Assembly (NCBI GenBank): GCA_024281215.1 | Contig: JAMJTX010000026.1 | Span: 1 to 34,342 of the forward strand | DNA: 34,342 nucleotides | Source: Candidatus Thiovulum karukerense | GTDB lineage: Bacteria; Campylobacterota; Campylobacteria; Campylobacterales; Thiovulaceae | Direction: 5' to 3' | Notes under the pieces: generated by a model | What the model saw: only the letters and a program-made list of their open reading frames with translations | What the model was told of the DNA's origin: nothing | The model's database searches: none | Shown: piece by piece, positions 2 to 23,888 of the stretch | Layout of the letters: every line of letters begins with the position of its first letter | How positions within the stretch are numbered: the stretch's first letter is position 1 | Made by a program: the position numbers and the translations under genes

Positions 2-2044
2 CATTACACTATATATGCTTTTATTAACATCACTTTTAGAAAGCTGATCAATTGAATAGACTTTTGTGATTGAACCAAGTGCTAATTTATTACTAGATTC
101 AACTCTAGTTAGAATATCATCATCTCCATTCTCTTTAATATCAAAGTTTCTATTTTCATCATTAATGGTTGTCATATATACATAATCACCACTCTCTTTA
201 GACTTAAAGTCCCCAAAGGTTAAAGTTGTTGCAATAGTGTTAGCTGTATTTCCATTACTAACTGTTTTTGAAATATAGTTACCATTACCTGTATAGTCAA
301 TATATAGATTTTCATCTGCTCCAAGAGTTGTATCATCAACTCTAAATGTTTTAGTAAATGTATTATCTAAAATATAGAATGGAGTGTTTCCAACAAGAAT
401 AACAGAGTCTTGGAATCCATTGATATCTAAATCAACAATAACATCATTAATAATATCTACTGAGCCACTTGAAAAATCCGTAGTTAAATCTGCAATATTA
501 TCTTCTGTAACATCAATTTCAGTTGTATTTATTTTGACTTTACCTAGTTCAATGGTTCCACTATTCAAAGGTGTATTAGCAGTAGTTCCATCACCATTGT
601 TATTTATAGAAGCTACTAATGTATATTCACCATATCTTGAAGCTACACCAGTATCCGTTAAGTTTGCAACAGCAATATATGAATTTGATGATAGATCATA
701 AGGATCTTGATCTCCAATTGTTCTTACAATATCAAATACATCGTCATCATTACCTCCACTATCTTTATCATAAACCCTAAACCGTCTGTCTGATAAAATA
801 ACTATTTTTCCTGTTAGCTCAGTATCATCGATTGGGAATGCTCTAACATTAAAATTTTTAGACAGCTCTCCCTTTTCAATACCAGAGCTAATTTGATTAT
901 TAATAGCTCTACATACCTCTTGAGGATTTACCCCATTAGCATCAATAGAGTATAAAGTGATGGATATACTCTCTTTACCTGTCTCATCAGTGATAGTAAA
1001 TTCATCATCAACTGCTTGATTAGATAATTTTAATATCAATCCTGTTGATGAGTGTCGAAGATAACCATCTGGAAATGAGAGCATATTCCAGCCACTTGAT
1101 AAGAGAGGGTGTCCGCCATATCGACTAGTATTGTTTCCATCTGAAAGAGGGTAGTAAGTTTTAGAGTATGTTGTAAGAGATATATTTCCATCTCCAAGAA
1201 TTAGACCATGCTGTGTTGTAGCTTCAGTATCGTCATGGAGTTTTACCCAATATGCACTTCCTGCTGTTAACTCTGTAAAATCATTTGAGCTATCAGCTAT
1301 CTCAGAGTAGAAGCTCTCCCAAATAGATCTATTAGAGTCTAGCCGAAATACTTTTATCCAGTCATCACCAACAGTAAGATCATCTCTGTGAGCAGAGTCT
1401 CTATCATAATCCAGAATATCACCAGATTGACCATCTCTCCCTGGATTGTTTGTGAAGTCCATATCTATCAATTTACGAATCTTAAATGTGTAATCAGATG
1501 TAGCCACTTTTAAGGCTGACAGAGTCATTGGATTGTCAGAAGTGTGGGAAGAGTTAAAATAGCCATAATAGACTCTATTATCATTAAGGTCTGTAATAAC
1601 TTTTAAGTGAAACATTTCACCCTCAAGGTTTGCCTGATACTTCACTTTTATATCAGCAGTTCCACTGTTGTCACTATCGATAAATATCTCTCGTCGTGGT
1701 TGGTAGCTATCAATTGAAAAACCATCTCCATTAAATGAGAGAGTAATTGTATTGAAGTCTGTATCTGTCACCTCAAAACCGACTAGATGAGTTGTTGCAT
1801 TATATACAGCTAGAGTTCCACCATCAGCAGTTCCTATATAACTCCCATCGTTAATGCCACCATCAACCTCAGTCCCATAGTGCCAATCCCCGCTCGTTGT
1901 AATATCACCACTTCCAGAACCCTCCATAAAAGCCCCTGGAACACCTATAAGTTTCCACTGGTCGTTAGGCAAAACAACCTCAACAAGATTATTTGCACTT
2001 AGTCCAATAAAAGCTACTAGAGAAAAAAGTCTTAATATCTTCAC
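2..2044 (-). CDS. Large secreted surface protein, 3'-truncated by the window edge (>681 aa); paralog of the 1353-aa protein at 6168..10229
   Basis: Not in the ORF track. Manual translation: GTG at 2044 overlaps the upstream TGA (GTGA), and no in-frame stop occurs down to base 2. It begins MKILRLFSLVAFIGLSANNLVEVVLPNDQWKLIGVPG (signal-peptide-like) and shares ordered motifs with the 1353-aa protein (NNPG, YDRDS, ELTAGSAYWVK, GLILGD, GWNMLSFP, RAIN, FNVRAFP, YGEYTLV). Confidence 0.9.
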   Translation of the reverse strand, partial: MKILRLFSLVAFIGLSANNLVEVVLPNDQWKLIGVPGAFMEGSGSGDITTSGDWHYGTEVDGGINDGSYIGTADGGTLAVYNATTHLVGFEVTDTDFNTITLSFNGDGFSIDSYQPRREIFIDSDNSGTADIKVKYQANLEGEMFHLKVITDLNDNRVYYGYFNSSHTSDNPMTLSALKVATSDYTFKIRKLIDMDFTNNPGRDGQSGDILDYDRDSAHRDDLTVGDDWIKVFRLDSNRSIWESFYSEIADSSNDFTELTAGSAYWVKLHDDTEATTQHGLILGDGNISLTTYSKTYYPLSDGNNTSRYGGHPLLSSGWNMLSFPDGYLRHSSTGLILKLSNQAVDDEFTITDETGKESISITLYSIDANGVNPQEVCRAINNQISSGIEKGELSKNFNVRAFPIDDTELTGKIVILSDRRFRVYDKDSGGNDDDVFDIVRTIGDQDPYDLSSNSYIAVANLTDTGVASRYGEYTLVASINNNGDGTTANTPLNSGTIELGKVKINTTEIDVTEDNIADLTTDFSSGSVDIINDVIVDLDINGFQDSVILVGNTPFYILDNTFTKTFRVDDTTLGADENLYIDYTGNGNYISKTVSNGNTANTIATTLTFGDFKSKESGDYVYMTTINDENRNFDIKENGDDDILTRVESSNKLALGSITKVYSIDQLSKSDVNKSIYSVM

Positions 2045-2643
2045 ACACTCTCCCTATCTATATAGTAATCTGTAATCTCTGTATATAGTTCAATTTCGTC
2101 ATATCGGAATATCTTTTCAACTATTGGTTCAAAAAAATCAACCATCTGTTGAGGAATAATAGGAGTTGCAATATAGATAGACTCAATCTTAAATACAGAT
2201 GATATCGTTGCTATTGCTGTCTCCATTCGTAAACCAGTCTCAACTGCTTCATCAACTAAAATAACTTTTTCAACTGTTTCACCTATCTTTAAGTTATCTC
2301 GATTGCCTCGAATAGCTTCAACTCTCGGCATAAGTTTATAGTCATAAATAACATCAATACTATTTAAAAGCATCTCCCGTTCAAGTTGAAAAGCCTCTTT
2401 AAGAACATCGTCAATAATTATAGTTTTAAATTCGCTAACCATAGCTATTTCACAATCAGAGTTCTTTTGGCAAAATACAGGCTCTAAAAATAGTCTTTTA
2501 TTTGGAATTTGAAGATGCTTAGAGAGAATTTTAGCTATCTGCTCCCCACTCTCTGAAATTGCAACAAGAAGCCAATTTTTATCTTCCAACTCCCCGATTG
2601 TTTCTAAGAGTTTTAGTGAAGCATCTTCGATATTTTGAAACAC
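2041..2643 (-). CDS. Phosphoribosyltransferase-fold protein with degenerate PRPP-binding loop
   Basis: ILVDEAVETGLRM resembles the PRTase hhhDDxxxTGxT loop, followed by IYIATPI. Abuts mlaD upstream and overlaps the start of the surface protein gene. Confidence 0.7.
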   Translation of the reverse strand: MFQNIEDASLKLLETIGELEDKNWLLVAISESGEQIAKILSKHLQIPNKRLFLEPVFCQKNSDCEIAMVSEFKTIIIDDVLKEAFQLEREMLLNSIDVIYDYKLMPRVEAIRGNRDNLKIGETVEKVILVDEAVETGLRMETAIATISSVFKIESIYIATPIIPQQMVDFFEPIVEKIFRYDEIELYTEITDYYIDRESV

Positions 2644-4020
2644 TTATAGACCTCCTCCAGCAGCTCCCATAAATGCTTTAAGATCGTTATCAATAAAGTA
2701 GAACCCAACTCCCATAAATAGCGCAGAGTGACTATTAATTAAGTTTGTCCCACCTACTAAGAGATCGATATGGTCATAGACTCTATATCGCAATGAAGCT
2801 TTTAAATTTGCTCCATCATTTCTGATATCATTTACAGCATTAAAATCAAATGCTTCAAGTGAAAATTTAAGCTTGTCTGCAAAAGCGAAGAAGTCTATAC
2901 CTAAACCACCTGTACTTTCAATCAATCCAGCTCGGAACAACCAATCACCATACCTTTTTCCATACTGTGCAGAGAAGAGAGTCTCTCCATCTTCATGAAG
3001 CTGACTTCCCTTAATTGTTCCATCAGACTTGTACTCATCATAGACAGGAGCATTAACAAGTGAGAAGAGATAGTATGTATTTGGATTTGGAAGATAAGCG
3101 ATATTTGTATATGTTGAGAAAGTCTCATCTCGGAAATTATGCTCAGCCCTCATCGAGAATTGAAGCTCAGATTTTGTTAATGATAAAATAATTTTATCTA
3201 ACTCTTTAATAGTCTCTTCACCCTTAGAAAAGAATCCTTCAACAGAGTCTAAGCTATTTATTAGAGGCTCTTTTGCATCACTAACAGTTCCGTTTAGCTC
3301 TGTTACAAGAATCTGAATTGAATCTAGCACCTCAGGAAGTCGTCTATCTAAATTTGCTCCAACAGAGTGGTATTTATCAAGGGTTCTTTCAAGAGATTCT
3401 ATAACAGCTGGAAGATTTGATGAAGCACTCTCTATATTTGTTACTGTATTTTTTACTCCATCTCTATTCTCTTGAATAACCCCCTTAAGATCTCGGAGGA
3501 TTGTGGCAAGATTAGATATTGCTCCCTCTAACTCATCTCGTCTATCTTGGTTGAGGGTACTTCTAATCTCTTGAGCAAGTTGTCTAAACTCCTCTGATGT
3601 CTGGAAAAAGCTATCACTTGTCTTCTCAAAAGATGCCAACTTTTTATATCTTTTAATAAATGAGCCTTCACCAAGGTAGATTGGTGAGTGACCTCTATTT
3701 ATAGCTACTATTTTACTTCCAAGAAGTGACTCTTGGACAAGTTGCACCTCTGAATCTTTTGGTATCTGATACCCATTTTCAATAAAGAGGTTTAAGACAA
3801 TAAAGTCATCAGCCATTGAGAATGACTCAACCCAACCGATAGAGATACCATTCATCTTAACTTTAGAGTTAATTTCAAGACCAGTTGAATCATCAACAAA
3901 GACCTGAACTCTATACCCCTCTGCATTAACATTTTTAAACTCACTAACTTGAGTTGTCAATAGAAACAGCATTGCCAAACCAAGAACAACGAAAAAACCA
4001 ACTTTTGCCTCTACACTCAT
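2644..4020 (-). CDS. mlaD: MCE/MlaD family protein, long form (TM anchor, MCE domain, helical stalk, beta-rich C-terminus)
   Basis: EAKVGFFV N-terminal TM; MCE motifs GLEINSKVKMNGISIGWV and SLLGSKIVAI; long amphipathic helical region; C-terminal aromatic beta-strand pattern. Confidence 0.85.
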   Translation of the reverse strand: MSVEAKVGFFVVLGLAMLFLLTTQVSEFKNVNAEGYRVQVFVDDSTGLEINSKVKMNGISIGWVESFSMADDFIVLNLFIENGYQIPKDSEVQLVQESLLGSKIVAINRGHSPIYLGEGSFIKRYKKLASFEKTSDSFFQTSEEFRQLAQEIRSTLNQDRRDELEGAISNLATILRDLKGVIQENRDGVKNTVTNIESASSNLPAVIESLERTLDKYHSVGANLDRRLPEVLDSIQILVTELNGTVSDAKEPLINSLDSVEGFFSKGEETIKELDKIILSLTKSELQFSMRAEHNFRDETFSTYTNIAYLPNPNTYYLFSLVNAPVYDEYKSDGTIKGSQLHEDGETLFSAQYGKRYGDWLFRAGLIESTGGLGIDFFAFADKLKFSLEAFDFNAVNDIRNDGANLKASLRYRVYDHIDLLVGGTNLINSHSALFMGVGFYFIDNDLKAFMGAAGGGL

Positions 4021-4169
4021 CTCTCTATAACCTCTAAATCACTATTTATCATTAATATTCAGCTCTTAAAAATTTTTACTATATTATCATGATTCTAATC
4101 TAGGGAGTGAATGGTTATCACTCGATTAAGTTTCTACTTGGAAATATAAGAGTTAATGAAAGGAGTTAG

Positions 4170-6113
<1,944 letters not shown>

Positions 6114-6167
6114 ACGATTCTTTGACTAGTATATTAATGTAAATAGAGATATAGGGGAGGTTCCGCA

Positions 6168-9100
6168 ATGGCTGGAAAACTAGGTAGGCTACTTATAGCC
6201 TTTATGCTATTCAACACACTCTTATCCGCTGAAAATGATCTGAGTCCAAAGTATGTTCGACTCTTTTCAAATGATAGTAGTGGTGATGGTGTATGGCAGA
6301 TGGTGGGTGTTGCAGGTTTTTATAACAACATCTATGGAGTTGGATTTGATGAAAAAGTAGGGAGTAATGTATATACAGCTTTCTACTGTGATGACAATAG
6401 TGAAGACTCGATTATTAGGGCTAAAGTAGTTAATTCTGAGACTAATGATGACGAGATGAGAAACCGATATTGGTTATTCTCTGTATCTCTCCAGAAGAGT
6501 GTCACAGGATATGAGCCTCTAGTTGTTGATATTGCATCATCTAACTTAAACTGTTCAACAGTCGGTCAATATAATGGTGTTCCATCACTGGAGAAACCAG
6601 TTGAAGAGCCAAATGGAACAGATGTGATGATTAACTTTATTCATGCTTCAAATGTTAACCCAACTGTTGTATTCTCATTAGGCTATGATCTCGATACTGA
6701 GGGGAAAGATATATATAGCATTACTATCGATGATGATGCGACACCTGTTACATTAAGTTCATTGGCAATGGATCAGACAACTCAGACTTACTCATCAATT
6801 ATCTCAAATATGAGTGTAAAAAAGCAGTCAATTGGTAGTATTGTTGATCTATATCTTAATGATAACCCTGGTTTTGGTAGTGCAGATGATAACTCAACAA
6901 ACTATGATAGAGATAGTAGAGAGTTTGTCTCTGTAAATCATCAAGTACCTATTGATGAGAGTAACTTCCTAAGTGATGAGGTAACTCTGACTATATATAG
7001 TTATGAAGATGCTGATGGTGATGATACAGTTGCATCACGAAATAGTTGGCAACTATACAACAACAAACGACCTAGTGCCGAAAACGGATTTAATGAACTT
7101 CAAGCTGGTAGAGGATACTGGATGAAGTATGACTTCTCTGCTGATAGAACATCAACATTTATTCAAACACTAGATCTAAACTCTAGTTGTGGTAGAGGTT
7201 GTGAAAGTAACTTAACTATTAGCATGAATGGTGATCTCAATAGCACTAACTACCAATTTACAGATAGTGATGTTGATTCAATAGTTTCTGTTCTTAATGA
7301 TACTAATGTCTCTAGAAATGGTGTTGCAGAAGTTAATATATCTGCTGTTAAGATAGCAAACAACTCTATCCTTATTCGAGCTATTGCCGGTGCAAAGCCT
7401 ACTCTTAAAGAGGAGAAGGTTGATGGTGTTACAAAAAATATCTTTTTAAATATTAAAAATGCAACTACTGCATTCTCTAATACAGAAGATATTAAAGCCG
7501 GTCTTGTTCTTGGTGATAGTAGTGTTGTATTAACATCTAGTTCCGTCTATCCACAAATTGTAAGAGAGGGTTGGAATCTATTAACTCTGCCAACTTCAAC
7601 AATTCGAGAGAGTGTTACAGGATTAATGATTGACTGGACAGCTCCAGACTTTAATAAACTTCAGATTAGTGATCACTCTGGTGTTAATGTTGTTGATGTT
7701 ATTGATTCAGATAGTAACCTTTTAATGGATCAAGCTAGTCTAAGAGACTCAGCAAGAGCAATTAATCAAGCTATCTATAAAGCTCAAACATCAGGAACTC
7801 TCTCAACTCAGTACTTTAATGTAAGAGCTATTCCAGTAACTGATGCTAATGATGTGAATAAAATTATGTTGATATCTAATGATCGATTCTCTATTGCAGT
7901 TGATAAAACTGGTCATAGTAGTTTTACAGGAAAAGTTTTATCACTAAATGGTAATGATAAAAATATTAGAGATACATCTATTGTATCAAGTGATGCAAAT
8001 TTATCAACATCAACTTATGGAGAGTATGCTCTTGTTTTTGAACCTAACCTCAACTCTCAATTTGTTAAAGATGGTATCGCTTCATTTGAGATTAATGGAC
8101 ATAAAATAGCTATTGCAGCTAATGCAACTCTAAATTCTCTAAAGAATCAAATTAATGGTGCAAATATTGATGTTAATGCATCTGAGATAGACTCAGATAT
8201 AGATGGAACGATGGATAGACTTCTTATAACATCAAGCTCAGTTATATCTATCAGGGATACAACTTATACAAAAGTTTATAAATTTACACCTAATCTTATT
8301 GGTGATGTTACGGTATCTCTTCATAAAGGGACAGATTTAGATGGTGAAGTACTTAATTCAAGAGTTACTGTTGCAAAAGATAAGAATATCTCTACATCAT
8401 CTTACACTCAAAATGGGACTTATCTAGATGGTGAAGTTACAAAGAACTATTATAGTTATATAGTAGATAAAGATGGAAATGGAACAATTACTGGAAGTGA
8501 GACAGAATATATTGTTTTAGTTTCGCAAACTCCTGACCTATATCTCAGAGAGAGTGCAGAGTCAAACAACACAGATGATAGCCTTGAAGAGAACCTCTCT
8601 TATGATAAAAATGTTTCAACAGCCGGAGCAATTTTAGGTGCAATTCACGGTGGAACATTTGCAACTGTTGATCTTGATAGCAATGGAGATATCAATAGTA
8701 GCAAACTTGGTGAAAGAAATGTGACAGCAAACAAGTTTATTACAGATGACCTTTTAGTCTCAAATGCTCTTATTACTCTCTATAATGCATTTGCAAATAA
8801 AGAGACAAAATATGTTCCTACTATGATCATTGGTGGTGAATCAAATGTAGATACTGGTATTATCAAATGGCAGAAACTATCACCTATTCAACAGATTAGT
8901 AAATGGTATAAAGATTACAACCTTTTCCATACTAATAACCAAAAGGGTTACTGGGTATATCTTGATAAGTACGACTCAAATAACAGTCTTGTTAAAGTGT
9001 TGATAGAGGAAGATATCGGTTCTGGTATTGAGGAGAATGAAGTCCCAACCGTTACAAAACAGTATATTAGAAGTTTTGATAATGAGCGCAATACTACAAC

Positions 9101-10229
9101 AAATATGTTTGACCTTGATATATCCGCATTTGTTAAAGGTGTAAAGACAACAACAGATAGTAATGGAGATACAGTAGCAGATGAGAGTAGTCTTTTTGTA
9201 TCAGCTCAACTTGTAGGTGTCTCAGATGCTCTTGAAGCTCTTGAGTTTAAAATGCCTATAAATAGTTCAACTGAGGATTCTGCTCCAACAGTTGATGGAA
9301 TTAGAGAGTTCTCAACAGAGATTAACTACTTTGATGTTGATGGTCTCCATAGAGATATGTTAAGTGGTCTAACTCAATTAACAGGTATTAAAATTACTGC
9401 AACAGATGGGCGACTTGATACAGATGAATATACAATTCCTCTTGATGTAACAAAGCCTAAAAAACCTACTCTTGAGTTTAAGACAACAGAGCCTAGAGAT
9501 ATCTTTATTACAGCTGGTGATGTCAATGATACAGTTAAATATCTCATATTTAAAGATAGAATAGATGATATTAATGGAACTGTTATCGATAGCTCAAATG
9601 GTATAAATATACCATCTAACTTTATTATGGAAGTTAATAGAACAGATGGGGAGAGTGGAGTTGGAGGACTTTGCCAACACCCTACTTTTAGTGGTGACAA
9701 CTTAGAGTATGCTTCTCTTATTGTTCTTGCTCTTGATAACCAAGATGATACTCAAGCAAACTTCTCTGATATGAAACGAATCAACTTCTTACCTATGAGA
9801 GATAGCCATGTTTTAGAGAGTACTTATGCTAATGGTTCTACAACTGAAAGAGACGAAGTACCAACTATCTACAACTCATCTTGTGATAATGACGGTGACT
9901 TAACAGATAGTACAGGTGAAACAATAAATAGTGGGATTAGCTTAAAATCTCTTAATGGAGAAGTTCGTATAGCTTACCGAGGTATTGAGGGTGAAAAGTT
10001 TGCTCAAGATCTACCAAATACAATAGTTGTGGGTGTTGTTGGAAACTCAACAGTAAGAGTTGCTGAGATTAAGTATATTGATAGATATGTTGGTAAAAAC
10101 TTCTATATCTCTTATAACGGAAAGATTTATGGTCAAACTTTCCCAACAACAGCAGATTCTGAAAACTATTTAGAGACACCATATCCATTAAACTTAGTCT
10201 CAAATAGTGGGCAGATAATAGGTGATTAA
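6168..10229 (+). CDS. Giant secreted surface protein (1353 aa), predicted heavily N-glycosylated; function unknown
   Basis: SD GGGGAGG, Sec-like signal (RLLIAFMLFNTLLSA), acidic S/T/N/D-rich beta-type composition, 20 D/E-x-N-x-S/T sequons, paralogous to the gene at 2..2044. Confidence 0.9.
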   Translation: MAGKLGRLLIAFMLFNTLLSAENDLSPKYVRLFSNDSSGDGVWQMVGVAGFYNNIYGVGFDEKVGSNVYTAFYCDDNSEDSIIRAKVVNSETNDDEMRNRYWLFSVSLQKSVTGYEPLVVDIASSNLNCSTVGQYNGVPSLEKPVEEPNGTDVMINFIHASNVNPTVVFSLGYDLDTEGKDIYSITIDDDATPVTLSSLAMDQTTQTYSSIISNMSVKKQSIGSIVDLYLNDNPGFGSADDNSTNYDRDSREFVSVNHQVPIDESNFLSDEVTLTIYSYEDADGDDTVASRNSWQLYNNKRPSAENGFNELQAGRGYWMKYDFSADRTSTFIQTLDLNSSCGRGCESNLTISMNGDLNSTNYQFTDSDVDSIVSVLNDTNVSRNGVAEVNISAVKIANNSILIRAIAGAKPTLKEEKVDGVTKNIFLNIKNATTAFSNTEDIKAGLVLGDSSVVLTSSSVYPQIVREGWNLLTLPTSTIRESVTGLMIDWTAPDFNKLQISDHSGVNVVDVIDSDSNLLMDQASLRDSARAINQAIYKAQTSGTLSTQYFNVRAIPVTDANDVNKIMLISNDRFSIAVDKTGHSSFTGKVLSLNGNDKNIRDTSIVSSDANLSTSTYGEYALVFEPNLNSQFVKDGIASFEINGHKIAIAANATLNSLKNQINGANIDVNASEIDSDIDGTMDRLLITSSSVISIRDTTYTKVYKFTPNLIGDVTVSLHKGTDLDGEVLNSRVTVAKDKNISTSSYTQNGTYLDGEVTKNYYSYIVDKDGNGTITGSETEYIVLVSQTPDLYLRESAESNNTDDSLEENLSYDKNVSTAGAILGAIHGGTFATVDLDSNGDINSSKLGERNVTANKFITDDLLVSNALITLYNAFANKETKYVPTMIIGGESNVDTGIIKWQKLSPIQQISKWYKDYNLFHTNNQKGYWVYLDKYDSNNSLVKVLIEEDIGSGIEENEVPTVTKQYIRSFDNERNTTTNMFDLDISAFVKGVKTTTDSNGDTVADESSLFVSAQLVGVSDALEALEFKMPINSSTEDSAPTVDGIREFSTEINYFDVDGLHRDMLSGLTQLTGIKITATDGRLDTDEYTIPLDVTKPKKPTLEFKTTEPRDIFITAGDVNDTVKYLIFKDRIDDINGTVIDSSNGINIPSNFIMEVNRTDGESGVGGLCQHPTFSGDNLEYASLIVLALDNQDDTQANFSDMKRINFLPMRDSHVLESTYANGSTTERDEVPTIYNSSCDNDGDLTDSTGETINSGISLKSLNGEVRIAYRGIEGEKFAQDLPNTIVVGVVGNSTVRVAEIKYIDRYVGKNFYISYNGKIYGQTFPTTADSENYLETPYPLNLVSNSGQIIGD

Positions 10230-10259
10230 GAGTCACACTATATTTAGAAGGAGTATAAA

Positions 10260-10466
10260 ATGCTAACAGCAATTGCAGCACTACTTGTCGCCTCCCTTGT
10301 GGGGGGGGTTTTTGGCTCTGTGGCAACATACACCTATGTTGATTCATCTGAAGGTAAGTATTGCGATAGAATGAGTGATGAAGTAACTCCTGATGAGGAG
10401 TTCTATAATGAATATGGCACAACAGAAAATTATAACTCTGGAGAAGACGGATACGAAGGGTATTGA
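10260..10466 (+). CDS. Small membrane-anchored or secreted peptide (68 aa) with acidic Tyr-rich tail
   Basis: Strong SD (GAAGGAG), hydrophobic N-terminus with GxxxG (GGVFG), and stop TGA 1 nt before the lipoprotein ATG at 10468. Confidence 0.6.
   Translation: MLTAIAALLVASLVGGVFGSVATYTYVDSSEGKYCDRMSDEVTPDEEFYNEYGTTENYNSGEDGYEGY
10291..10313 (+). terminator. Terminator-like hairpin or G8 tract inside the small ORF
   Basis: CCTCCC-TTGT-GGGGGG then GG and TTTTT, about 60 nt after the stop of the 1353-aa gene. Confidence 0.4.
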
Positions 10467-10467
10467 T

Positions 10468-12135
10468 ATGAAGAAGTTCCTGAATATAATTAACTTATCT
10501 CTCTTCTCTATTTTTATACTCCTATCAGGTTGTAATGTAGCTGATAATATCAATAAAGATCTATTGGGTATTGAAGATGAAGATAACAGTAATCCTCCGC
10601 CATCTAATAGTGATGATAGTCAGCCTGATGATAGTAGTGATGATGACAACAGTAATCCTCCACCATCTAACAATGACAACAATCAATCTGATGATAGTAG
10701 TGATGATGACAACAGTAATCCTCCACCATCTAACAATGACAACAATCAACCTGATGATAGTAGCGATGATTCTAATATTACTAGCAATGGTGATTCAAAC
10801 CTTTCAAGCGGTTCTAACGATAATGATACCCAAGAGACTCCTATGGAGTGTGAGAGTGGTTACCATTTAGAGGGTGATACTTGTGTTGTTGATACAGTTA
10901 CTTGCGATGACGATCAAATTCTTCAAAATGGTGAATGTGTTGATGTAACAACTACTTGTTCGACGGGTTATCACTTATCTGGTGGAACTTGTGTGCCTGA
11001 TAGTTCTGGTGGTTTAGATTATGTGGAGGTGGTTGAATTTAACCTTTCACTACCTGAATATAACAACCAGAAAAGTATAGATATTATCATGCCAAAAAAT
11101 CATGAAAAAGTTGTTATTGTTCGTTCAAATCCTAAACAGACTGATATCAACCTAAAGATGCAACTTCATCAATTTACTAACAATAGTGTAGTTGATGCAA
11201 TGCTTCAGGCTGAAGGTTCTCCAATCGTTGCACAGAACTATGATTATGGAGTCATTTTTACATCTGGAGATGCCATAGGTAAAGATGAGTTCCAATTGAC
11301 CCTTGAGAACGATACAGGATTTAGCGATAGTGTATATATCAATATGCAGGTTATTGATCAGATAACTTTAACTAAGGCACGAGATAAATATACTGTTGTA
11401 ACAGATGGAGATGCTGTAAATATAGTTATTGGGGGCTACAATGCTTTAAATAATCCTCTTGAGTTTGAAATTGTTGATTTAACCCAGATTAACAATGAGA
11501 AAAATCTTGCAATTGTTGTTAATGGCTCAAGAATCTTCAATACAGATACAGTTGATGGAGTTGATTTCAACTTTTCAGTTAGAGGTCTTGAAGATTGGAA
11601 AGAGAGTGTTGAGATTAAAGTTAAAGATAGAAGTACAGGAACAACTGAATCACTATTCTTAACTATTGAGTCTGCAAAACGAAGTACTGCTATCTATGAA
11701 GATCTAGAAGAGTGTAATGAAGATTACAATAGAAACTACTTTGAGGCAACTAGTGATAGCAACACTCCTCAATCTCCAGATGGAATATATAGTTCTGACA
11801 ATGCGATATACTTAAAATCGACTTACAATATGGACTATGATATAGGTAATACATTCTCAACTGTTATGGTATTCCATCCAACAAATGGTCAATACTCTTA
11901 TGATAGCTATGCACGAGAGACAATATCTAATTTAGATACTGGAAAAAGGATAGCTACTATATACTATGCAAACTACCTTCAAGGAATGGATTACTTTGTT
12001 AAGTACTACAATGAGGATAAGAACCAAGTTGTATGTGAGAGACGAACATTCCCTGTAATTAGTGCAGCTCCAATTGAAGACTGGGAGAGCGGACTCTATA
12101 CTCCGACTGAGTCAGAAATTCCTTCTATCTTCTAG
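10468..12135 (+). CDS. Lipoprotein with Asp/Asn/Pro/Ser repeat stalk, Cys-pair repeats and beta-rich domains
   Basis: Start moved to ATG 10468, giving MKKFLNIINLSLFSIFILLSG-C with lipobox LSGC; 3x21-aa repeats and 3x C-x10-C-V repeats follow. Confidence 0.85.
   Translation: MKKFLNIINLSLFSIFILLSGCNVADNINKDLLGIEDEDNSNPPPSNSDDSQPDDSSDDDNSNPPPSNNDNNQSDDSSDDDNSNPPPSNNDNNQPDDSSDDSNITSNGDSNLSSGSNDNDTQETPMECESGYHLEGDTCVVDTVTCDDDQILQNGECVDVTTTCSTGYHLSGGTCVPDSSGGLDYVEVVEFNLSLPEYNNQKSIDIIMPKNHEKVVIVRSNPKQTDINLKMQLHQFTNNSVVDAMLQAEGSPIVAQNYDYGVIFTSGDAIGKDEFQLTLENDTGFSDSVYINMQVIDQITLTKARDKYTVVTDGDAVNIVIGGYNALNNPLEFEIVDLTQINNEKNLAIVVNGSRIFNTDTVDGVDFNFSVRGLEDWKESVEIKVKDRSTGTTESLFLTIESAKRSTAIYEDLEECNEDYNRNYFEATSDSNTPQSPDGIYSSDNAIYLKSTYNMDYDIGNTFSTVMVFHPTNGQYSYDSYARETISNLDTGKRIATIYYANYLQGMDYFVKYYNEDKNQVVCERRTFPVISAAPIEDWESGLYTPTESEIPSIF
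10576..10770 (+). repeat. 63-bp coding tandem repeat, about 3 copies (DDNSNPPPSNNDNNQxDDSSD)
   Basis: AACAGTAATCCTCC recurs at 10585, 10648 and 10711 (period 63); copies 2 and 3 are nearly identical. Confidence 0.95.
10849..10995 (+). repeat. Three 18-aa Cys-pair repeats
   Basis: CESGYHLEGDTCV / CDDDQILQNGECV / CSTGYHLSGGTCV separated by 5-aa Thr/Val/Asp linkers. Confidence 0.85.
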
Positions 12136-12153
12136 TTCCGTAGGAGAAAATTC

Positions 12154-15132
12154 ATGAAATATCTATTCACTCTATTGGCTTTAGCAACCTCCCTTTTTGG
12201 GAGGGACTTCACTGTTACAACAAGTGAAGAACTCTACTTTGCTCTTAAAAGTGCAGAAAACAATCTTGAAGATGACACAATTACTCTAAAAAAGGGTCGC
12301 TACATTGCAACGGATAAACATCTTTTTGTCTATGAGTCTAGTGAGAATTTTGACTTAACACTTGAAGCTGAGTCTGGAGCAAGAAGAAGTGATGTGGTCA
12401 TTGATGGAAATGGCTTGTCTTCTGTTCTAACCTTTCGTAATGAGACATATAAGATTATTGTCAATATTCTAAATATAACGATACAGAATGGAGATACAGC
12501 TGAACAGGGTGGTGGTATTCTTATGGATAACATAGGGGAACTAAACCTTGATGGTGTAACAGTTGCTTATAATAAGTCAAAGTATGATGGTGCTGGTGTC
12601 TATAATTTAGGAACAGTTATTGTTAATGAGTCAATTATTGCTAGAAATGAGTCTTTGAGAGGAGTTGGTGGAGGTGTTTTTACGGGTCGTAATGCAATTA
12701 TAAAACTCTCGCAAATATCTTACAACAAATCCTATAAACACGGTGGTGGAGTGTTTAGTACAAAAACAGCTCTTGTCAAAGATTCAACAATATCATACAA
12801 CCAGAGTAGTTATGGTGGAGCATTCTATGGTCTCTCAAAGCTTAAAGCGACACAATCTATATTTACAAACAATAGTGCTAAATATGATGGTGGGGCAATT
12901 AAATGCGATAAAGTTCGCCTTTTTGATGTAAATCTTTCCAACAATAGTGCTAATAACTATGGTGGTGCTATCTATTCAACAAGAGTCAATCTTGATGATT
13001 CAAGCCTTTTTGAGAATAGTGCGAAATATGGTGGAGCTATTCTTTCAGATGAGATCGAGATAAAAGGTGGTTCGATATTTAAGAACTCCGCAGATTATAG
13101 TGGGGGTGCTTTAAAGGGTGTTAATGTAATAGTGAAAGATGCAAATCTTTCATACAACACTAGCAGAAGAGATGGTGGAGCGATTGAGACCACTCAAGCT
13201 ATCATATCAAATAGTGAGCTATCTGATAATAGCAGTAAAAAGGGTGGAGCTATTTTTGGCAAACGAGTCACAATTACAAACTCTACTTTTAATCGAAACA
13301 GGTCAGCTATAAGTGGTGGAGCTGTTAAAGGTTACGATCTTAAAATTCGTTATACCACTATGTGCGAAAATCGATCTGAGAAGTTTGGAGGGGCTATTGA
13401 TGGAGTTGATGTTACAGTTACAAACTCAAATCTTTCCAAAAATGTCAGCTATAAAGGTGGTGCTATCTACTCTCCGCACACATCAAAGCTTGATTTAACA
13501 AACTCCCTTATGTTTTACAATAAAGCATACTATGGAGGAGCACTGTTTGGTAATGTAAAGATTTTTAACTCTCTTCTACTTAATAACTATGCTAAAGGAA
13601 TGACTCTCTATGGTAAAGGAACTCTTATTAACAATGTTATTAAGAACTTTACTGCACCAGATGTAGCTTCTCAAGAGATATTTATGACAGGGAATCTTAA
13701 GCTAGAGAACAACTATCTCAATATGGGTAACATCTATAACTATCAGATGTATAAACTCAAAAGAAAAGGGAATCTGCCACTAAGTCAATTAGAGGAGGTT
13801 GAAGATCTATCGAGTGTATTTGGAGAACAGTCTCATATAGCTTCAGTTGGACTATCCGTAGATTTTAGATCTAGTTGTGAAGAGATTTTTAATGTGAAAA
13901 ATGCATATGAATCTCTTTTAGAGAATGCTCTTATCGATGTTAATGGTGATGATGATAATGATACTATCGTTACGATGAAGCGAGATGATAGAGGTGCTGA
14001 AAGAAGCTCAATGTTAGCAGATATTAGTGATTTGATGGTTGAGGGTGACCAGAAAGTCTTTAATGAACTATACCTTGTTGTGATTGTTAGAAGTGGAAAA
14101 CATAGAGTCGAAAAATATTTTATCGATTTTGACGAGGGTCGAGGTTATGAAGAGATTAGAGGAAATTCTGTAAATCACCGTTTTCATAACTCTGGAATTA
14201 AAGATATAAAAGTTAAGATTGTTGATAGTGCAGGCAATATTGTTGAAAGAGAGTTTCCAGTAGATATATATGAACTATCTCAAGATGAGTTCCGAGAACT
14301 GTTGAGCGATACTGAGACACGAGAGTATCTTGAAAACATAAGTAAAGGTGTTCTAAATGTTGCAGAGGATATGAATGGCTCAAAATATAGTTCTGCGGTT
14401 GGTCTCTTTAATAGAAGTAGTGGTGATAGTGAATATCTAAAAAGAAGGTATGGGGCTTTATTGAGTGAGTTAAACTCTGAGAGTGCTTCAAGTAATGAGT
14501 TTAATATCTCGAAGATGGTACAGTTTAATAATGGTGTCAATGAGGTTAAAGAGTATATCCTTAGTAACTTGGAGGAGTTTAACTTAGTCTCTCGCGAGGA
14601 GTCAAAAGATGCTATTGAGAATGCTAAGAAGTATATAGTTGAGAATCCATCAGAGTTCAATCTCACAAGTTTCAGAAACTATGAAGAGATTATTATCGAT
14701 ATCCAACATCAAATTATGTCAAATCTTGATGAGTATAACTTAACCCATAAAAAGAACTTAGATGTTGCATATAGTGAAGGACAAGAGAAAGTTATAAGCA
14801 ACCCGAAAGCATTCAACCTTATGAGTATGAACGACCTTCAGGGTGAAATGAGAAAACTTACTGATAAGATTAAAGCAGATCCATCTAAATATGGCATTAA
14901 AGTTACCAGAGAAGTTGTTCAAAGTCTTGATAAAGGTTGGTCTCTTCTTGGAACTCTTGCTGAAATAGAAGATATATCAATATTTGACGGTGCAAAAATT
15001 GTTTGGATATTTGCCGAAGGTGAGTTTAAGGGGTATAGCCCTGATCCTGATGTCCGAAGGAAGATTCGGGGAGCATACTTTGAACTCTTTAGCCATGTTC
15101 CAAAAAATGCTGGAATCTGGCTCTATAAGTAA
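12154..15132 (+). CDS. Secreted beta-helix protein with Pmp-like GGA(I/L/V) repeats, PKD-like domain, NP-xx-F/Y repeats and C-terminal GW module
   Basis: SD AGGAG, signal MKYLFTLLALATSLFG, about 15 N-x-A/S-xx-GG(A/G)h repeats, PKD-like YFIDFDEG..HRFHNSG...VKIVDSAG, C-terminus KGWSLLG...VW...AGIWLYK. Confidence 0.85.
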   Translation: MKYLFTLLALATSLFGRDFTVTTSEELYFALKSAENNLEDDTITLKKGRYIATDKHLFVYESSENFDLTLEAESGARRSDVVIDGNGLSSVLTFRNETYKIIVNILNITIQNGDTAEQGGGILMDNIGELNLDGVTVAYNKSKYDGAGVYNLGTVIVNESIIARNESLRGVGGGVFTGRNAIIKLSQISYNKSYKHGGGVFSTKTALVKDSTISYNQSSYGGAFYGLSKLKATQSIFTNNSAKYDGGAIKCDKVRLFDVNLSNNSANNYGGAIYSTRVNLDDSSLFENSAKYGGAILSDEIEIKGGSIFKNSADYSGGALKGVNVIVKDANLSYNTSRRDGGAIETTQAIISNSELSDNSSKKGGAIFGKRVTITNSTFNRNRSAISGGAVKGYDLKIRYTTMCENRSEKFGGAIDGVDVTVTNSNLSKNVSYKGGAIYSPHTSKLDLTNSLMFYNKAYYGGALFGNVKIFNSLLLNNYAKGMTLYGKGTLINNVIKNFTAPDVASQEIFMTGNLKLENNYLNMGNIYNYQMYKLKRKGNLPLSQLEEVEDLSSVFGEQSHIASVGLSVDFRSSCEEIFNVKNAYESLLENALIDVNGDDDNDTIVTMKRDDRGAERSSMLADISDLMVEGDQKVFNELYLVVIVRSGKHRVEKYFIDFDEGRGYEEIRGNSVNHRFHNSGIKDIKVKIVDSAGNIVEREFPVDIYELSQDEFRELLSDTETREYLENISKGVLNVAEDMNGSKYSSAVGLFNRSSGDSEYLKRRYGALLSELNSESASSNEFNISKMVQFNNGVNEVKEYILSNLEEFNLVSREESKDAIENAKKYIVENPSEFNLTSFRNYEEIIIDIQHQIMSNLDEYNLTHKKNLDVAYSEGQEKVISNPKAFNLMSMNDLQGEMRKLTDKIKADPSKYGIKVTREVVQSLDKGWSLLGTLAEIEDISIFDGAKIVWIFAEGEFKGYSPDPDVRRKIRGAYFELFSHVPKNAGIWLYK

Positions 15133-16536
15133 GTGCAGAAGATATTTAAAGAGGTAACATCTCTTGATAAGAGATGTTACAAAGAACTCTTTCTCAGTGA
15201 AGATATTTTGATGGAGAGTGCAGGTCGCTCAATATCAGACTATATTCTGAAGAACTTTCCAAAACAATCAACTATCCTGATAATTTCAGGAGGTGGTAAT
15301 AATGGAGCCGATGGAGTTGTTGTTGCAAGACAGCTTCACAAAGATTATAGAGTTAAACTGTTTCTTGCTTCTCAGCCAAAGAGTGAGATAGGCAAACTTC
15401 AGCTAAAACGAGCATCAGCTGTTGGAGTTAAAATTGTTACAGAGGTAGAAGATAGTGATGTTGTTGTTGATGCTATTTTTGGGAGTGGCTTTCAGGGTGA
15501 GTTATCAGAAAAATATATAGACCTCATCAGTAGATTCAATTCGCTATCTGGATTTAAAATAGCTTGTGATCTACCATCAGGAGTAGATATTGATGGAGGC
15601 ATACCTTCAATAGCTACAAACTGTGATATCACTATAACGATGGGGGCTATGAAACTCTCTCTTCTATCTGATGAGGTCAAAGATTTAACTGGTTCAATAG
15701 TTGTGGCAGACTTAGGAGTCTCAAGAGCTATATATGAGACTCACTCTATCTACTCTCTTCTTGAGAAGAGTGATCTAAAACTACCAATTCGAAAGTCTCA
15801 ATATAGTCATAAAGGTAGTTTTGGACATAGTGCTATATTAAGTGGAGAGAAGAGTGGTGCATCTATTATATCTGGAACTGCATCTCTCCTTTTTGGCTCA
15901 GGACTTGTAACTTTAGTCTCTCAAAATGAGAGTCTCAATACTTCTTATGAGTTAATGAGTAGTCAAACAGTACCTGATAATAGCACAGTAATTATTGCAG
16001 GTATGGGACTGGGAAATAGCGGAATAGAGTATTTCAGAGACGAGATATTAAATAGCACTCTACCCATGCTTCTTGATGCAGATATTTTTCATCATCAAAT
16101 TATTAATGATATTCTTAAAAAACGACCATATAACTTAGTTATAACTCCACACCCAAAAGAGTTCCAGTCAATTTTAAAGGTTGTGTTCCATATAGAGTTA
16201 CCAATATCAGAGATAGTCAAAAAACGGATTGAATTAACAGAACTATTCTCACAAAGATTTCCAGATGTAGTTCTTCTATTAAAAGGTGCTAATCGAGTTA
16301 TAGCTTTTCAAGAGAGGCTATATTTTGATACTTTGGGAGATGTTAGTTTAGCAAAAGGTGGAAGTGGAGATATATTGGCAGGATTAATAGGTTCTCTTTT
16401 AGCTCAGGGTTATTCTCCTTTAGATGCAACAGTTTCAGGTTCATTGGCTCTTAGTCTTTTATCACAAAGATATAAGGGAGCAAACTACTCCCTCTCACCT
16501 AGTAGGATTTTAAATATGGTTGGCGAACTATTTTAA
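15133..16536 (+). CDS. nnr: Bifunctional NAD(P)H-hydrate epimerase/dehydratase
   Basis: LMESAG, GGGNNGADG, DAIFGSG, DLPSG (YjeF_N); SHKGSFG, ITPHPKEF, LLKGA, LAKGGSGDILAG (YjeF_C). Confidence 0.95.
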   Translation: MQKIFKEVTSLDKRCYKELFLSEDILMESAGRSISDYILKNFPKQSTILIISGGGNNGADGVVVARQLHKDYRVKLFLASQPKSEIGKLQLKRASAVGVKIVTEVEDSDVVVDAIFGSGFQGELSEKYIDLISRFNSLSGFKIACDLPSGVDIDGGIPSIATNCDITITMGAMKLSLLSDEVKDLTGSIVVADLGVSRAIYETHSIYSLLEKSDLKLPIRKSQYSHKGSFGHSAILSGEKSGASIISGTASLLFGSGLVTLVSQNESLNTSYELMSSQTVPDNSTVIIAGMGLGNSGIEYFRDEILNSTLPMLLDADIFHHQIINDILKKRPYNLVITPHPKEFQSILKVVFHIELPISEIVKKRIELTELFSQRFPDVVLLLKGANRVIAFQERLYFDTLGDVSLAKGGSGDILAGLIGSLLAQGYSPLDATVSGSLALSLLSQRYKGANYSLSPSRILNMVGELF

Positions 16537-22313: not shown

Positions 22314-23888
22314 TTACTGTAAAAGTTTTAAGATATTTTGCTGAACAGCATTAGCTTGAGTTAAAGCATAACTTCCAGATTGAACAAGAATATTCATTTT
22401 TGAGAAGTTAGCCGACTCTTCTGCAAAATCAACATCTCTAATTGTAGATTCAGAAGCTTTAACATTTGTTCTTGTTACAGAGATATTGTTAATTGCTGCC
22501 TCTAGCTCGTTTTGAGCAGAACCGAGTCCAGATCGAATAAGGTCAAGGTGTTTAATAGCAGCATCTGCGATATCCATCACAGCAAATGCACCCTCAAGAG
22601 TTGTTACACCAGCAGTTAGTGGATAGTCAGATTCATCAATATTCTCAACACCAGGGTAGTTTAATGAGTTCTCATTTGCAAAAACACCCATTGCATCAGC
22701 CTGAAGTGAGTTAAATCCGTTAAGAATTCCTCTTAAGTTAAAGTTAGCTTGACTCATAGCACCATCATTAACAGCATTAGCTAAAGCTCCACCATCTTGC
22801 TCAGATACTCTAATATCAACAGCACCGATAGATACCATTGTTAATCTACCACCATTAAAGCTGTTTCCATCAATTCCAAAGAAATCTTGAAAAGTTTTTG
22901 TAATAGGATCACCATTCTCATCTGTTCCAACTGTAACAGGATCACTACTAATCTCAACTGCTCTACCATCAGTTGAAGTTAATTTGAGTCGTCCTCTCTC
23001 ATCAATTGAAGCAAAAACACCAGTCTCATCTCTAGCTTCATTGATTGTTGCAACTAAACGACCATCAGCATCATTTGCTTTAATGTCAGCAAGTTCCCCA
23101 AGCTCAACACCGTTGATAACAAGGTTTTTCACCTCTGCATCAGCTTGAACTGCTTTATCTCCAAGAACCTCAACTTTATATGATGCTCGAACACCAAGAA
23201 TTGAGCTATTTTTATTGATAACTTCTGTTAAAACTCCAAGTCCAGTTCCAGCTCGGCTATCAATCTGAACAGACTCCATTGTAATAGCACCATTTGGAAT
23301 ATGAGTACCTGTAAATGTAAGAGTACTTGTTCCACTTGCTGTAATTGAATTAACAGCTGTTGTCTCCGCTCTAACATGTCCAATTTTATCAGTTGAAGTA
23401 GCTTCGATTGAAGCTTGAACAGTGTTTCGGCTATAAGCACCAATTTGGAATTCTCTATTTACGAAGTTTCCAGATAGAAGCTGTTTTCCGTTGTAGCTTG
23501 TACTTCCAGCGATATTATCAATCTGATTCATAAGAAGAGTAATATCTTTTTGGATAGCTTTTCTTGAAGCACTTGACTGTCCATCTTGTGCAGCTTGAGT
23601 AGCTTTTGTCTTGATTGTATCAAGGATAGCAACTTGCTCAGCCATAGCTTTATCAGCAATCTGAATAATTCCAACAGCCTCATTTGCATTGTGAAGAGCT
23701 TGAGTAAGTGAGTTTGCTTGAGATCGGAGGGAGTCAGCAATCGCCATACCTGAAGAATCATCAGCAGCTTTATTAATTTTAAGACCTGAGCTTAATCTTT
23801 CGAGAGAGCTACTAAGACCCTTGTTATTTAAGTTTGCTTGAGTAGATGCAATCATGGCAGCAGTATTCGTATTAACAATAAAACCCAT
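22314..23888 (-). CDS. flaA: Flagellin (epsilon type, probably sigma28-dependent FlaA-like)
   Basis: LERLSSGLKINKAADDSSG N-terminus, IRDVDFAEES...LKLLQ C-terminus. The flaA versus flaB assignment rests only on the promoter. Confidence 0.92.
   Translation of the reverse strand: MGFIVNTNTAAMIASTQANLNNKGLSSSLERLSSGLKINKAADDSSGMAIADSLRSQANSLTQALHNANEAVGIIQIADKAMAEQVAILDTIKTKATQAAQDGQSSASRKAIQKDITLLMNQIDNIAGSTSYNGKQLLSGNFVNREFQIGAYSRNTVQASIEATSTDKIGHVRAETTAVNSITASGTSTLTFTGTHIPNGAITMESVQIDSRAGTGLGVLTEVINKNSSILGVRASYKVEVLGDKAVQADAEVKNLVINGVELGELADIKANDADGRLVATINEARDETGVFASIDERGRLKLTSTDGRAVEISSDPVTVGTDENGDPITKTFQDFFGIDGNSFNGGRLTMVSIGAVDIRVSEQDGGALANAVNDGAMSQANFNLRGILNGFNSLQADAMGVFANENSLNYPGVENIDESDYPLTAGVTTLEGAFAVMDIADAAIKHLDLIRSGLGSAQNELEAAINNISVTRTNVKASESTIRDVDFAEESANFSKMNILVQSGSYALTQANAVQQNILKLLQ

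Follow-up and report, generated by a model that had tools for sequence, protein, structure and literature searches.

A conserved, family-specific block of exported, sequon-rich proteins in Candidatus Thiovulum karukerense and a separate unit with a paralogous giant protein

Members of the genus Thiovulum are uncultured, unusually large bacteria that rank among the fastest swimmers known. The window analyzed here, 34,342 nucleotides in length, is contig JAMJTX010000026.1 (C26) of Candidatus Thiovulum karukerense (Campylobacterota, Thiovulaceae; assembly GCA_024281215.1, 1.87 Mb in 191 contigs, 97.7% complete). Its first 15 kb encode two giant proteins (giantA and giantB), a peptide of 68 amino acids (pep68), a stalked lipoprotein, and a beta-helix protein (PMP992), which the original prediction had combined into a single glycosylated surface-layer or adhesin system. 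All five open reading frames (ORFs) lie where they had been placed, and their predicted export agrees with N-termini that read as Sec signal peptides or as a lipobox (LLSGC), while pep68 combines a hydrophobic helix with an acidic tail behind it; signal peptides and lipobox were judged by reading the sequences. The single system did not hold up: the two giants are separated by a phosphoribosyltransferase-like (PRTase-like) gene, mlaD, and ligA, and the genes fall into two conserved units instead.

Two gene units at one locus

The first unit lies on the plus strand and comprises giantB (6168–10229; 1353 amino acids with a signal peptide, multi-domain and rich in beta structure), pep68 (10260–10466), the stalked lipoprotein (10468–12135; 555 amino acids, starting at the Met before the lipobox), and PMP992 (12154–15132). 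The intervening gaps of 30, 1, and 18 nt were verified, and a Shine-Dalgarno site is present upstream of giantB, pep68, and PMP992. The gaps of 1 and 18 nt, together with these sites, suggest co-translation. Spacing alone cannot delimit the unit, because ligA (NAD-dependent DNA ligase; 4173–6113, plus strand; identified by Pfam scan and synteny) ends 54 nt before giantB, and nnr (YjeF_N plus carbohydrate kinase; 15133–16536, plus strand) abuts the stop codon of PMP992. A scan for sigma-70 promoters performed no better than shuffled sequence (64 found vs. 71.9 expected).

The extent of the unit is defined by its conservation. Among 201 genomes of Campylobacterales, comprising six species-level genomes of the Thiovulum family (four genera) and 195 others, the order ligA–giantB–pep68–lipoprotein–PMP992 is identical in four relatives, and a fifth agrees up to the end of its contig after the lipoprotein gene. 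Homologs of the giantB type are present in all six family genomes, with weak partial matches in 5 of the 195 others; the lipoprotein and pep68 each occur in 6 of the 201 genomes, all of the Thiovulum family, with pep68 always located within this cluster. Full-length orthologs of PMP992 are likewise confined to the family, whereas its repeats and its C-terminal module occur apart from each other in other families. The remaining long ORFs of the window (21 of at least 120 amino acids in all) behave differently: just a gene resembling flgL and a histidine kinase gene recur, at the loci of some relatives, and the genes directly downstream of PMP992, including nnr, never do. A recurring block with non-recurring neighbors indicates that the flanks were rearranged while the block stayed intact, and the predicted co-occurrence of the plus-strand genes is thus confirmed as that of a conserved, family-specific block.

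The second unit lies on the minus strand and starts with a membrane protein of the MlaD/MCE-domain type (2644–4020; PF02470, E 1.6e-13), which is followed by the PRTase-like gene (2041–2643), whose match to Pfam Pribosyltran (E 1.3e-5, 25 bits) falls just under the cut-off of 26.3, and by giantA (2–2044), assigned by BLASTP paralogy and synteny, of which the contig start leaves the N-terminal 681 amino acids with the signal peptide. The stop codon of the PRTase-like gene overlaps the start of giantA. Stops and starts overlap or abut along the entire string, and the MCE protein continues well beyond its domain at the C-terminus. The order mlaD–PRTase–giantA is a separate conserved string in two relatives (L057 and L058), located 14 kb from the giantB block in one and on a different contig in the other. 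Since the orthologs of giantA follow mlaD–PRTase elsewhere in the relatives, giantA does not belong to the same unit as the plus-strand genes; the second unit places a paralogous giant in another setting.

Protein families, domains, and folds

The predicted paralogy of the two giants was corroborated by BLASTP (E 1e-15, 27% identity over 283 columns, and a second segment with E 3e-6). An open frame of 671 residues that lies at one end of contig C75 corresponds to the remainder of giantA, and a third paralog of 1267 amino acids is encoded on contig C163. At E ≤ 0.1, no family of Pfam or NCBIfam matched either giantA or giantB, and scans of giantB sub-regions yielded exclusively matches below cut-off. 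A search of 5.8 billion clustered proteins with giantB returned 20 matches, 19 of them full-length or nearly so, with 36–100% identity; they carry no Pfam domain and no name beyond "hypothetical protein". When all of 1.84 billion representatives were scored, just 56 matched at E ≤ 1e-3, which points to a small, unnamed superfamily of about eight full-length giantB-type proteins, a few fragments, and, for the remainder, A-type giants of ~1000–1380 amino acids.

The A-type giants share with giantB a central region (residues 441–740) and a stretch around residues 830–940, and an alignment of 35 A-type sequences shows the same landmarks from end to end. In a FastTree phylogeny of 55 rows, giantB-type (19 rows) and A-type sequences (36 rows) form separate clades, each with support 100; giantA of the window falls within the A-type clade, where it groups with P0048 and the giant on C163. 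Of 401 genomes drawn from across the phylum, five, belonging to three families, matched a profile of the A-type, and members of the superfamily number about three or four per genome of Thiovulaceae. The public gene call of an identical protein (P0001; 1309 amino acids) starts at Met45 of giantB and therefore lacks the signal peptide (window positions 6168–6300); the conservation of residues 1–29 across the family supports the longer start.

A structural model of residues 1–1200 of giantB, based on 19 sequences, is almost entirely beta (pLDDT 68, pTM 0.55). Foldseek found no real match for the model in the PDB (TM-scores < 0.2), a giantB profile matched no PDB sequence at E ≤ 0.1, and ESM Atlas yielded no usable match. 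At the level of individual segments, residues 940–1095 resemble the Ig-like and carbohydrate-binding sandwiches of glycoside hydrolases and CBM21 (Z up to 8.3), and residues 326–441 resemble FliD D2–D3, the outer domain of flagellin, and phage sheath domains (Z 6.5–7.9). Several of the most conserved motifs (residues 442–485 and 884–932) are located in segments of low model confidence.

The lipoprotein begins with the lipobox at residues 18–22, and the sequence SGC or AGC followed by NVAD is present in all nine homologs. A stalk of ~100 acidic and Pro-rich residues follows, which is encoded by a 63-bp tandem repeat (3.1 copies; 10576–10770, plus strand), then six Cys residues in three hairpin-like pairs, two Ig-like domains, and a C-terminal beta domain. 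The number of stalk repeats varies: P0022, which is 95% identical (534 amino acids), is 21 residues shorter, and a contig from one DNA run skips exactly 63 bases, which corresponds to one repeat unit. All matches to Pfam and NCBIfam, including those of sub-regions, are below cut-off. In the AlphaFold model (13 sequences; pLDDT 74.5, pTM 0.49), the two Ig-like domains reach a pLDDT of ~90, with less confidence in the beta domain. The closest structures to the Ig pair are domains 4–5 of the S-layer protein SbsC (Z 10.5, rmsd 6.8 over 155 residues), and the tandem domains of SraP (Z 9.8), NCAM2, and intimin (D00–D0) are also among the best matches; the modeled fold is generic. Unlike SbsC and other surface proteins with Ig tandems, to which it has no sequence relationship, the lipoprotein would be anchored by a lipid and a repeat stalk instead of an SLH or cell-wall-binding domain. 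A paralog of 1286 amino acids is encoded on contig C44. A domain common to the lipoprotein and giantB, as had been proposed, found no support (best BLASTP E 0.52). A predicted complex of giantB residues 436–1000 with lipoprotein residues 187–555 scored 0.00 (mark 0.32), a value that counts neither for nor against an interaction.

The claim that the five proteins lack a named family applies to four of them, which have no Pfam or NCBIfam match above cut-off. PMP992, by contrast, belongs to Chlam_PMP (PF02415; E 3.3e-18, 64.2 bits, cut-off 20.6) and TIGR01376 (E 3e-27). It contains 14 GGx[ILVF] motifs spaced ~24 residues apart, which correspond to ~14 rungs of PMP repeats at residues 119–461, and the PF02415 repeats point to a parallel beta-helix like that of adhesin passengers. 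Beyond its signal peptide and these repeats, PMP992 consists of a weak PKD-like stretch, four helical repeats of 26 residues, and a C-terminal module of ~80 residues with the pattern GW...GFW (14890–15129, plus strand); the Pfam scan of this half yielded only matches below cut-off. PMP992 thus resembles the chlamydial Pmp proteins in its GGA(I/L/V)-type repeats but differs from them in its C-terminal half and in the lack of a beta-barrel: the autotransporter barrel PF03797 was found neither in PMP992 (E ≤ 0.1) nor elsewhere in the genome (E ≤ 0.001).

The GW module had been proposed to be common to PMP992 and both giants. It is a genuine domain in PMP992, whereas the giants show a half-domain likeness that is detectable only at the profile level. 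A profile seeded from the last 92 residues of PMP992 and iterated over the ORFs of the genome until convergence identified 12 copies in 10 ORFs, and the final profile 16 copies in 12 ORFs, with the landmarks GWxL(I/V)G, a central W.Y..G.W, and a terminal G(F/Y)W. All 12 ORFs start with a hydrophobic, signal-like N-terminus, which the module follows directly in seven cases. Six of nine other carriers that were scanned contain beta-propeller (two proteins), GH16, LRR, DUF1800, or LVIVD domains, and three have no domain above cut-off. The signal-like N-termini and the variety of domain partners suggest a promiscuous targeting or binding module.

The GW module has no match in Pfam and no relative among PDB sequences (profile search, E ≤ 1), and ESM Atlas contained exclusively unnamed clusters for it (0.89–0.90). 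It is present in 37 of the 201 genomes of Campylobacterales, with 11–20 copies in each genome of Thiovulaceae, and was not found in several large families. In hhalign comparisons, the second half of the module (columns 36–80) aligned with residues 273–320 of giantB (probability 83%, E 8.7e-6) and weakly with the equivalent site of the A-type giants (probability 6%, E 5.8e-3). Weak matches of the GW profile at giantB residues 457–478 and 900–931, together with the motif directly after the signal peptides of both giants, raise the hypothesis that the giants carry GW modules that may be split by large insertions.

In pep68, the remaining member of the block, the hydrophobic helix at the N-terminus is strongly conserved and contains a GGxxG motif; a single Cys is conserved as well, and the acidic tail, rich in Tyr, is variable. 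A run of eight G in the pep68 coding sequence (10301–10308, plus strand; Gly-Gly codons) is one of only six G or C runs of at least eight in the genome. The relatives have G7, G6, or an interrupted tract here, and contigs from two DNA runs contained no length variants, which makes for a weak case that it is a site of phase variation.

Sequons, predicted N-glycosylation, and export

The original prediction noted D/E-x-N-x-S/T sequons in the four large proteins, and of all features analyzed these gave the strongest signal. Compared with the expectation from 500 shuffles of each protein, giantB carries 20 sequons (vs. 2.9 ± 1.7; none of the 500 shuffles reached this number), PMP992 has 7 (vs. 1.6; 0 of 500), the lipoprotein 5 (vs. 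1.7; shuffle fraction 0.032), and the giantA fragment 4 (vs. 1.5; shuffle fraction 0.048). Among the neighboring genes, no sequon occurs in ligA, nnr, pyrF, or the PRTase-like gene, and the MlaD gene has one.

The excess is conserved. All 19 members of the giantB family have 11–26 sequons, about seven times the ~3 expected by chance; positions are often common to several members, and 18 of 19 have a sequon at N740. The family contains 339 motifs in forward direction vs. 63 reversed ones, and an acidic residue occupies position −2 in 59% of all NxS/T sites, compared with a D+E content of 14%. Orthologs of PMP992 carry 3–6 sequons (vs. 1.5–1.9 expected) and those of the lipoprotein 4–8 (vs. 0.9–1.4), whereas the count ranges from 0 to 21 among the A-type giants. 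Elsewhere in the genome, a lipoprotein of 2717 amino acids has 50 sequons (vs. 5 expected).

A candidate enzyme is encoded on contig C41, where an ORF of 732 amino acids matches STT3/PglB (PF02516, E 1.3e-21) and contains the WWDYG motif. The known N-glycosylation substrates of Campylobacter jejuni mostly carry one to a few sites. The proteins of the block share with them Sec export, the extended sequon, and a pglB with WWDYG in the genome; the 11–26 conserved predicted sites per protein set the giantB family apart. C. jejuni PglB shows a preference for an acidic residue at position −2 (PMC4894442). The literature search returned no paper that pairs Thiovulum with pglB. Genes of the prepilin type (N_methyl), some of them rich in sequons, are located at C163:5509–6606, C44:5231–6034, and C41:821–1799, near the third giant paralog, the lipoprotein paralog, and pglB.

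The absence of autotransporter and RTX families, as claimed, was confirmed for all five proteins in the Pfam scan. With no RTX family matched and Sec-type N-termini present, the proteins do not resemble RTX adhesins of type I secretion. The genome encodes two secretins, one of them beside a gene for a protein of 508 amino acids, and a study of Thiovulum reports type IV pilus genes for all Thiovulum genomes (PMC9938260). Secretins and type IV pilus genes make a secretin-based, type II-like route beyond the periplasm possible. Pfam and NCBIfam revealed no S-layer or anchoring domain (SLH and others): the giants matched no family at E ≤ 0.1, and no match of the lipoprotein passed the cut-off.

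As a proxy for abundance, codon adaptation was scored against eight ribosomal-protein genes. Ribosomal proteins range from 0.70 to 0.81, and flagellin reaches 0.733 (95th percentile). A flagellin gene (Flagellin_N/C/IN) and the FlgL-like gene are located in the window itself (22314–23888 and 26480–28330), and some relatives carry the latter close to ligA.

Possible roles and rival explanations

The most likely role of the first unit is that of a coat made of glycoproteins, or of an adhesive complex, on the cell surface or close to it, formed by family-specific, exported proteins that are predicted to be heavily N-glycosylated and to act together, although we give this reading slightly less than an even chance of being correct in full. 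As read from the sequences, the products would be exported by Sec and the lipoprotein lipidated at Cys22. A periplasmic oligosaccharyltransferase of the PglB type would then N-glycosylate the D/E-x-N-x-S/T sites, about 20 in giantB, 7 in PMP992, and 5 in the lipoprotein; the sequon excess, its directionality and conservation, and a pglB with WWDYG argue for this step. Synteny and a common phyletic pattern suggest that the products may act jointly in the envelope. The lipid-anchored lipoprotein would hold two Ig-like domains on an acidic stalk of ~100 residues with a variable number of repeats, giantB would be a chain of beta-sandwich domains of ~1,330 residues, PMP992 would be a beta-helix of ~14 rungs ending in the GW module that this order puts on many exported proteins, and pep68 would be a small membrane helix. 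The original prediction of a co-assembled envelope structure thus survives in part: a syntenic, family-specific block, predicted export, a high density of sequons, and a stalked lipoprotein are all present, whereas a lattice, a fibre, or co-assembly found no support.

Several observations weigh against the preferred reading of a joint coat or adhesive complex. Codon adaptation is moderate, with values of 0.666 for giantB and 0.668 for the lipoprotein (85th percentile each) and 0.574 for PMP992 (27th percentile), and this proxy does not favor abundance at the level of an S-layer. The fold matches of giantB and the lipoprotein are generic, with Z-scores in a range that the search tool calls middling. 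The giantB ortholog of one relative with a single-contig genome is split into frames of 982 and 384 amino acids, which may reflect decay or assembly error, and the PMP992 ortholog of an 81%-complete relative contains three in-frame stops. The retention of ligA, an unrelated housekeeping gene, in the same block makes synteny alone weak proof of a common function. Moreover, the excess of sequons is genome-wide, with 1019 observed vs. 517 expected in 1560 crude ORFs, among which giantB ranks ninth; the top-ranked ORFs (e.g., C62:6587–14740, C97:77–2620, and C119:1–2266) are all signal-peptide proteins, lipoproteins, or pseudopilin-like. Sequons are therefore present beyond chance in the four large proteins, but their enrichment is general to the exported proteins of this genome and not specific to the cluster, which argues for export and dense N-glycosylation rather than for one dedicated system.

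The same observations bear on the possibility that the block consists of independent exported proteins that were merely inherited side by side and form no complex. Conservation of ligA in the block, the generality of sequon richness, the small size of the family, and the fact that giants in other families are surrounded by housekeeping genes, have no recurring partner, and lack the genes found here, are all compatible with this explanation. It is nevertheless unlikely, if well worth considering, because the flanks on both sides were rearranged while the block remained intact, all four genes have exactly the same family-restricted distribution, and the narrow gaps, along with Shine-Dalgarno sites, point to co-translation. 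Alternatively, the products might build a structure within the periplasm rather than on the surface, such as a scaffold attached to the envelope or to the motility apparatus of these very large, very fast cells. This would be consistent with Sec signals throughout and no recognizable domain for export across the outer membrane, since substrates of PglB need to reach only the periplasm; the likeness of giantB residues 326–441 to FliD, flagellin, and phage sheath domains and the position of giantA behind an MCE-domain gene also fit. We consider such an assembly improbable, because these fold matches are middling, no flagellar gene accompanies the block in every relative, and both beta-helices of PMP repeats and stalked lipoproteins with Ig tandems are typically extracellular.

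There is a slim chance that the proteins form a true glycosylated S-layer, in which giantB, with or without giantA, would assemble into a two-dimensional lattice that the lipoprotein anchors to the outer membrane. The proteins are large, beta-rich, exported, and dense in sequons, the Ig tandem of the lipoprotein has its best match in SbsC, and the secretins provide a possible export route. However, the codon bias of giantB is not among the highest and that of PMP992 is below the median, the match to SbsC is on a par with those to NCAM, SraP, and further tandem Ig proteins, and no SLH or other S-layer family was matched; in the part of the Thiovulum study that was available (PMC9938260), S-layer, adhesins, and glycosylation are unmentioned, and the term "S-layer" occurs 0 times. 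A crystalline S-layer is unproven. The giants also resemble adhesins associated with pili or type II secretion, of the PilY1/PilC type, in their size and Sec signal, and the prepilin-type genes near the third giant (C163) and the lipoprotein paralog (C44), as well as the widespread type IV pilus genes, would agree with such a function. This explanation is highly improbable: neither PF05567 nor any other Pfam family matched giantA or giantB, and the giant on C163 has a single match below cut-off; the pilin genes on C163 are convergent with the giant and not co-oriented, and both the cluster of the window and the giants of other families lack pilin neighbors.

In kind, the proteins are closest to exported glycoproteins of the PglB type and to barrel-less PMP-repeat proteins. 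A more far-reaching interpretation, which we regard as quite unlikely, is that the giantB-type proteins are the most densely N-glycosylated bacterial proteins known to date, that the block encodes a lineage-specific glycoprotein apparatus at the surface for tethering cells and joining them into veils, and that GW is a tag for surface retention or sorting. Such an apparatus may be a coat, or the material or anchor of a secreted stalk, and the GW tag may be present on dozens of exported proteins of environmental Campylobacterales. The attachment of Thiovulum to surfaces and the connection between cells in veils are described as an open question in the study of Thiovulum cited above (PMC9938260).

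The four exported proteins of the family-restricted block are tangible candidates for envelope functions peculiar to this lineage, and GW is an unnamed domain that deserves structural and binding work. If the predicted sites are indeed glycosylated, their density would widen the known scope of general N-glycosylation in bacteria, and the proteins would be natural substrates for glycoengineering.

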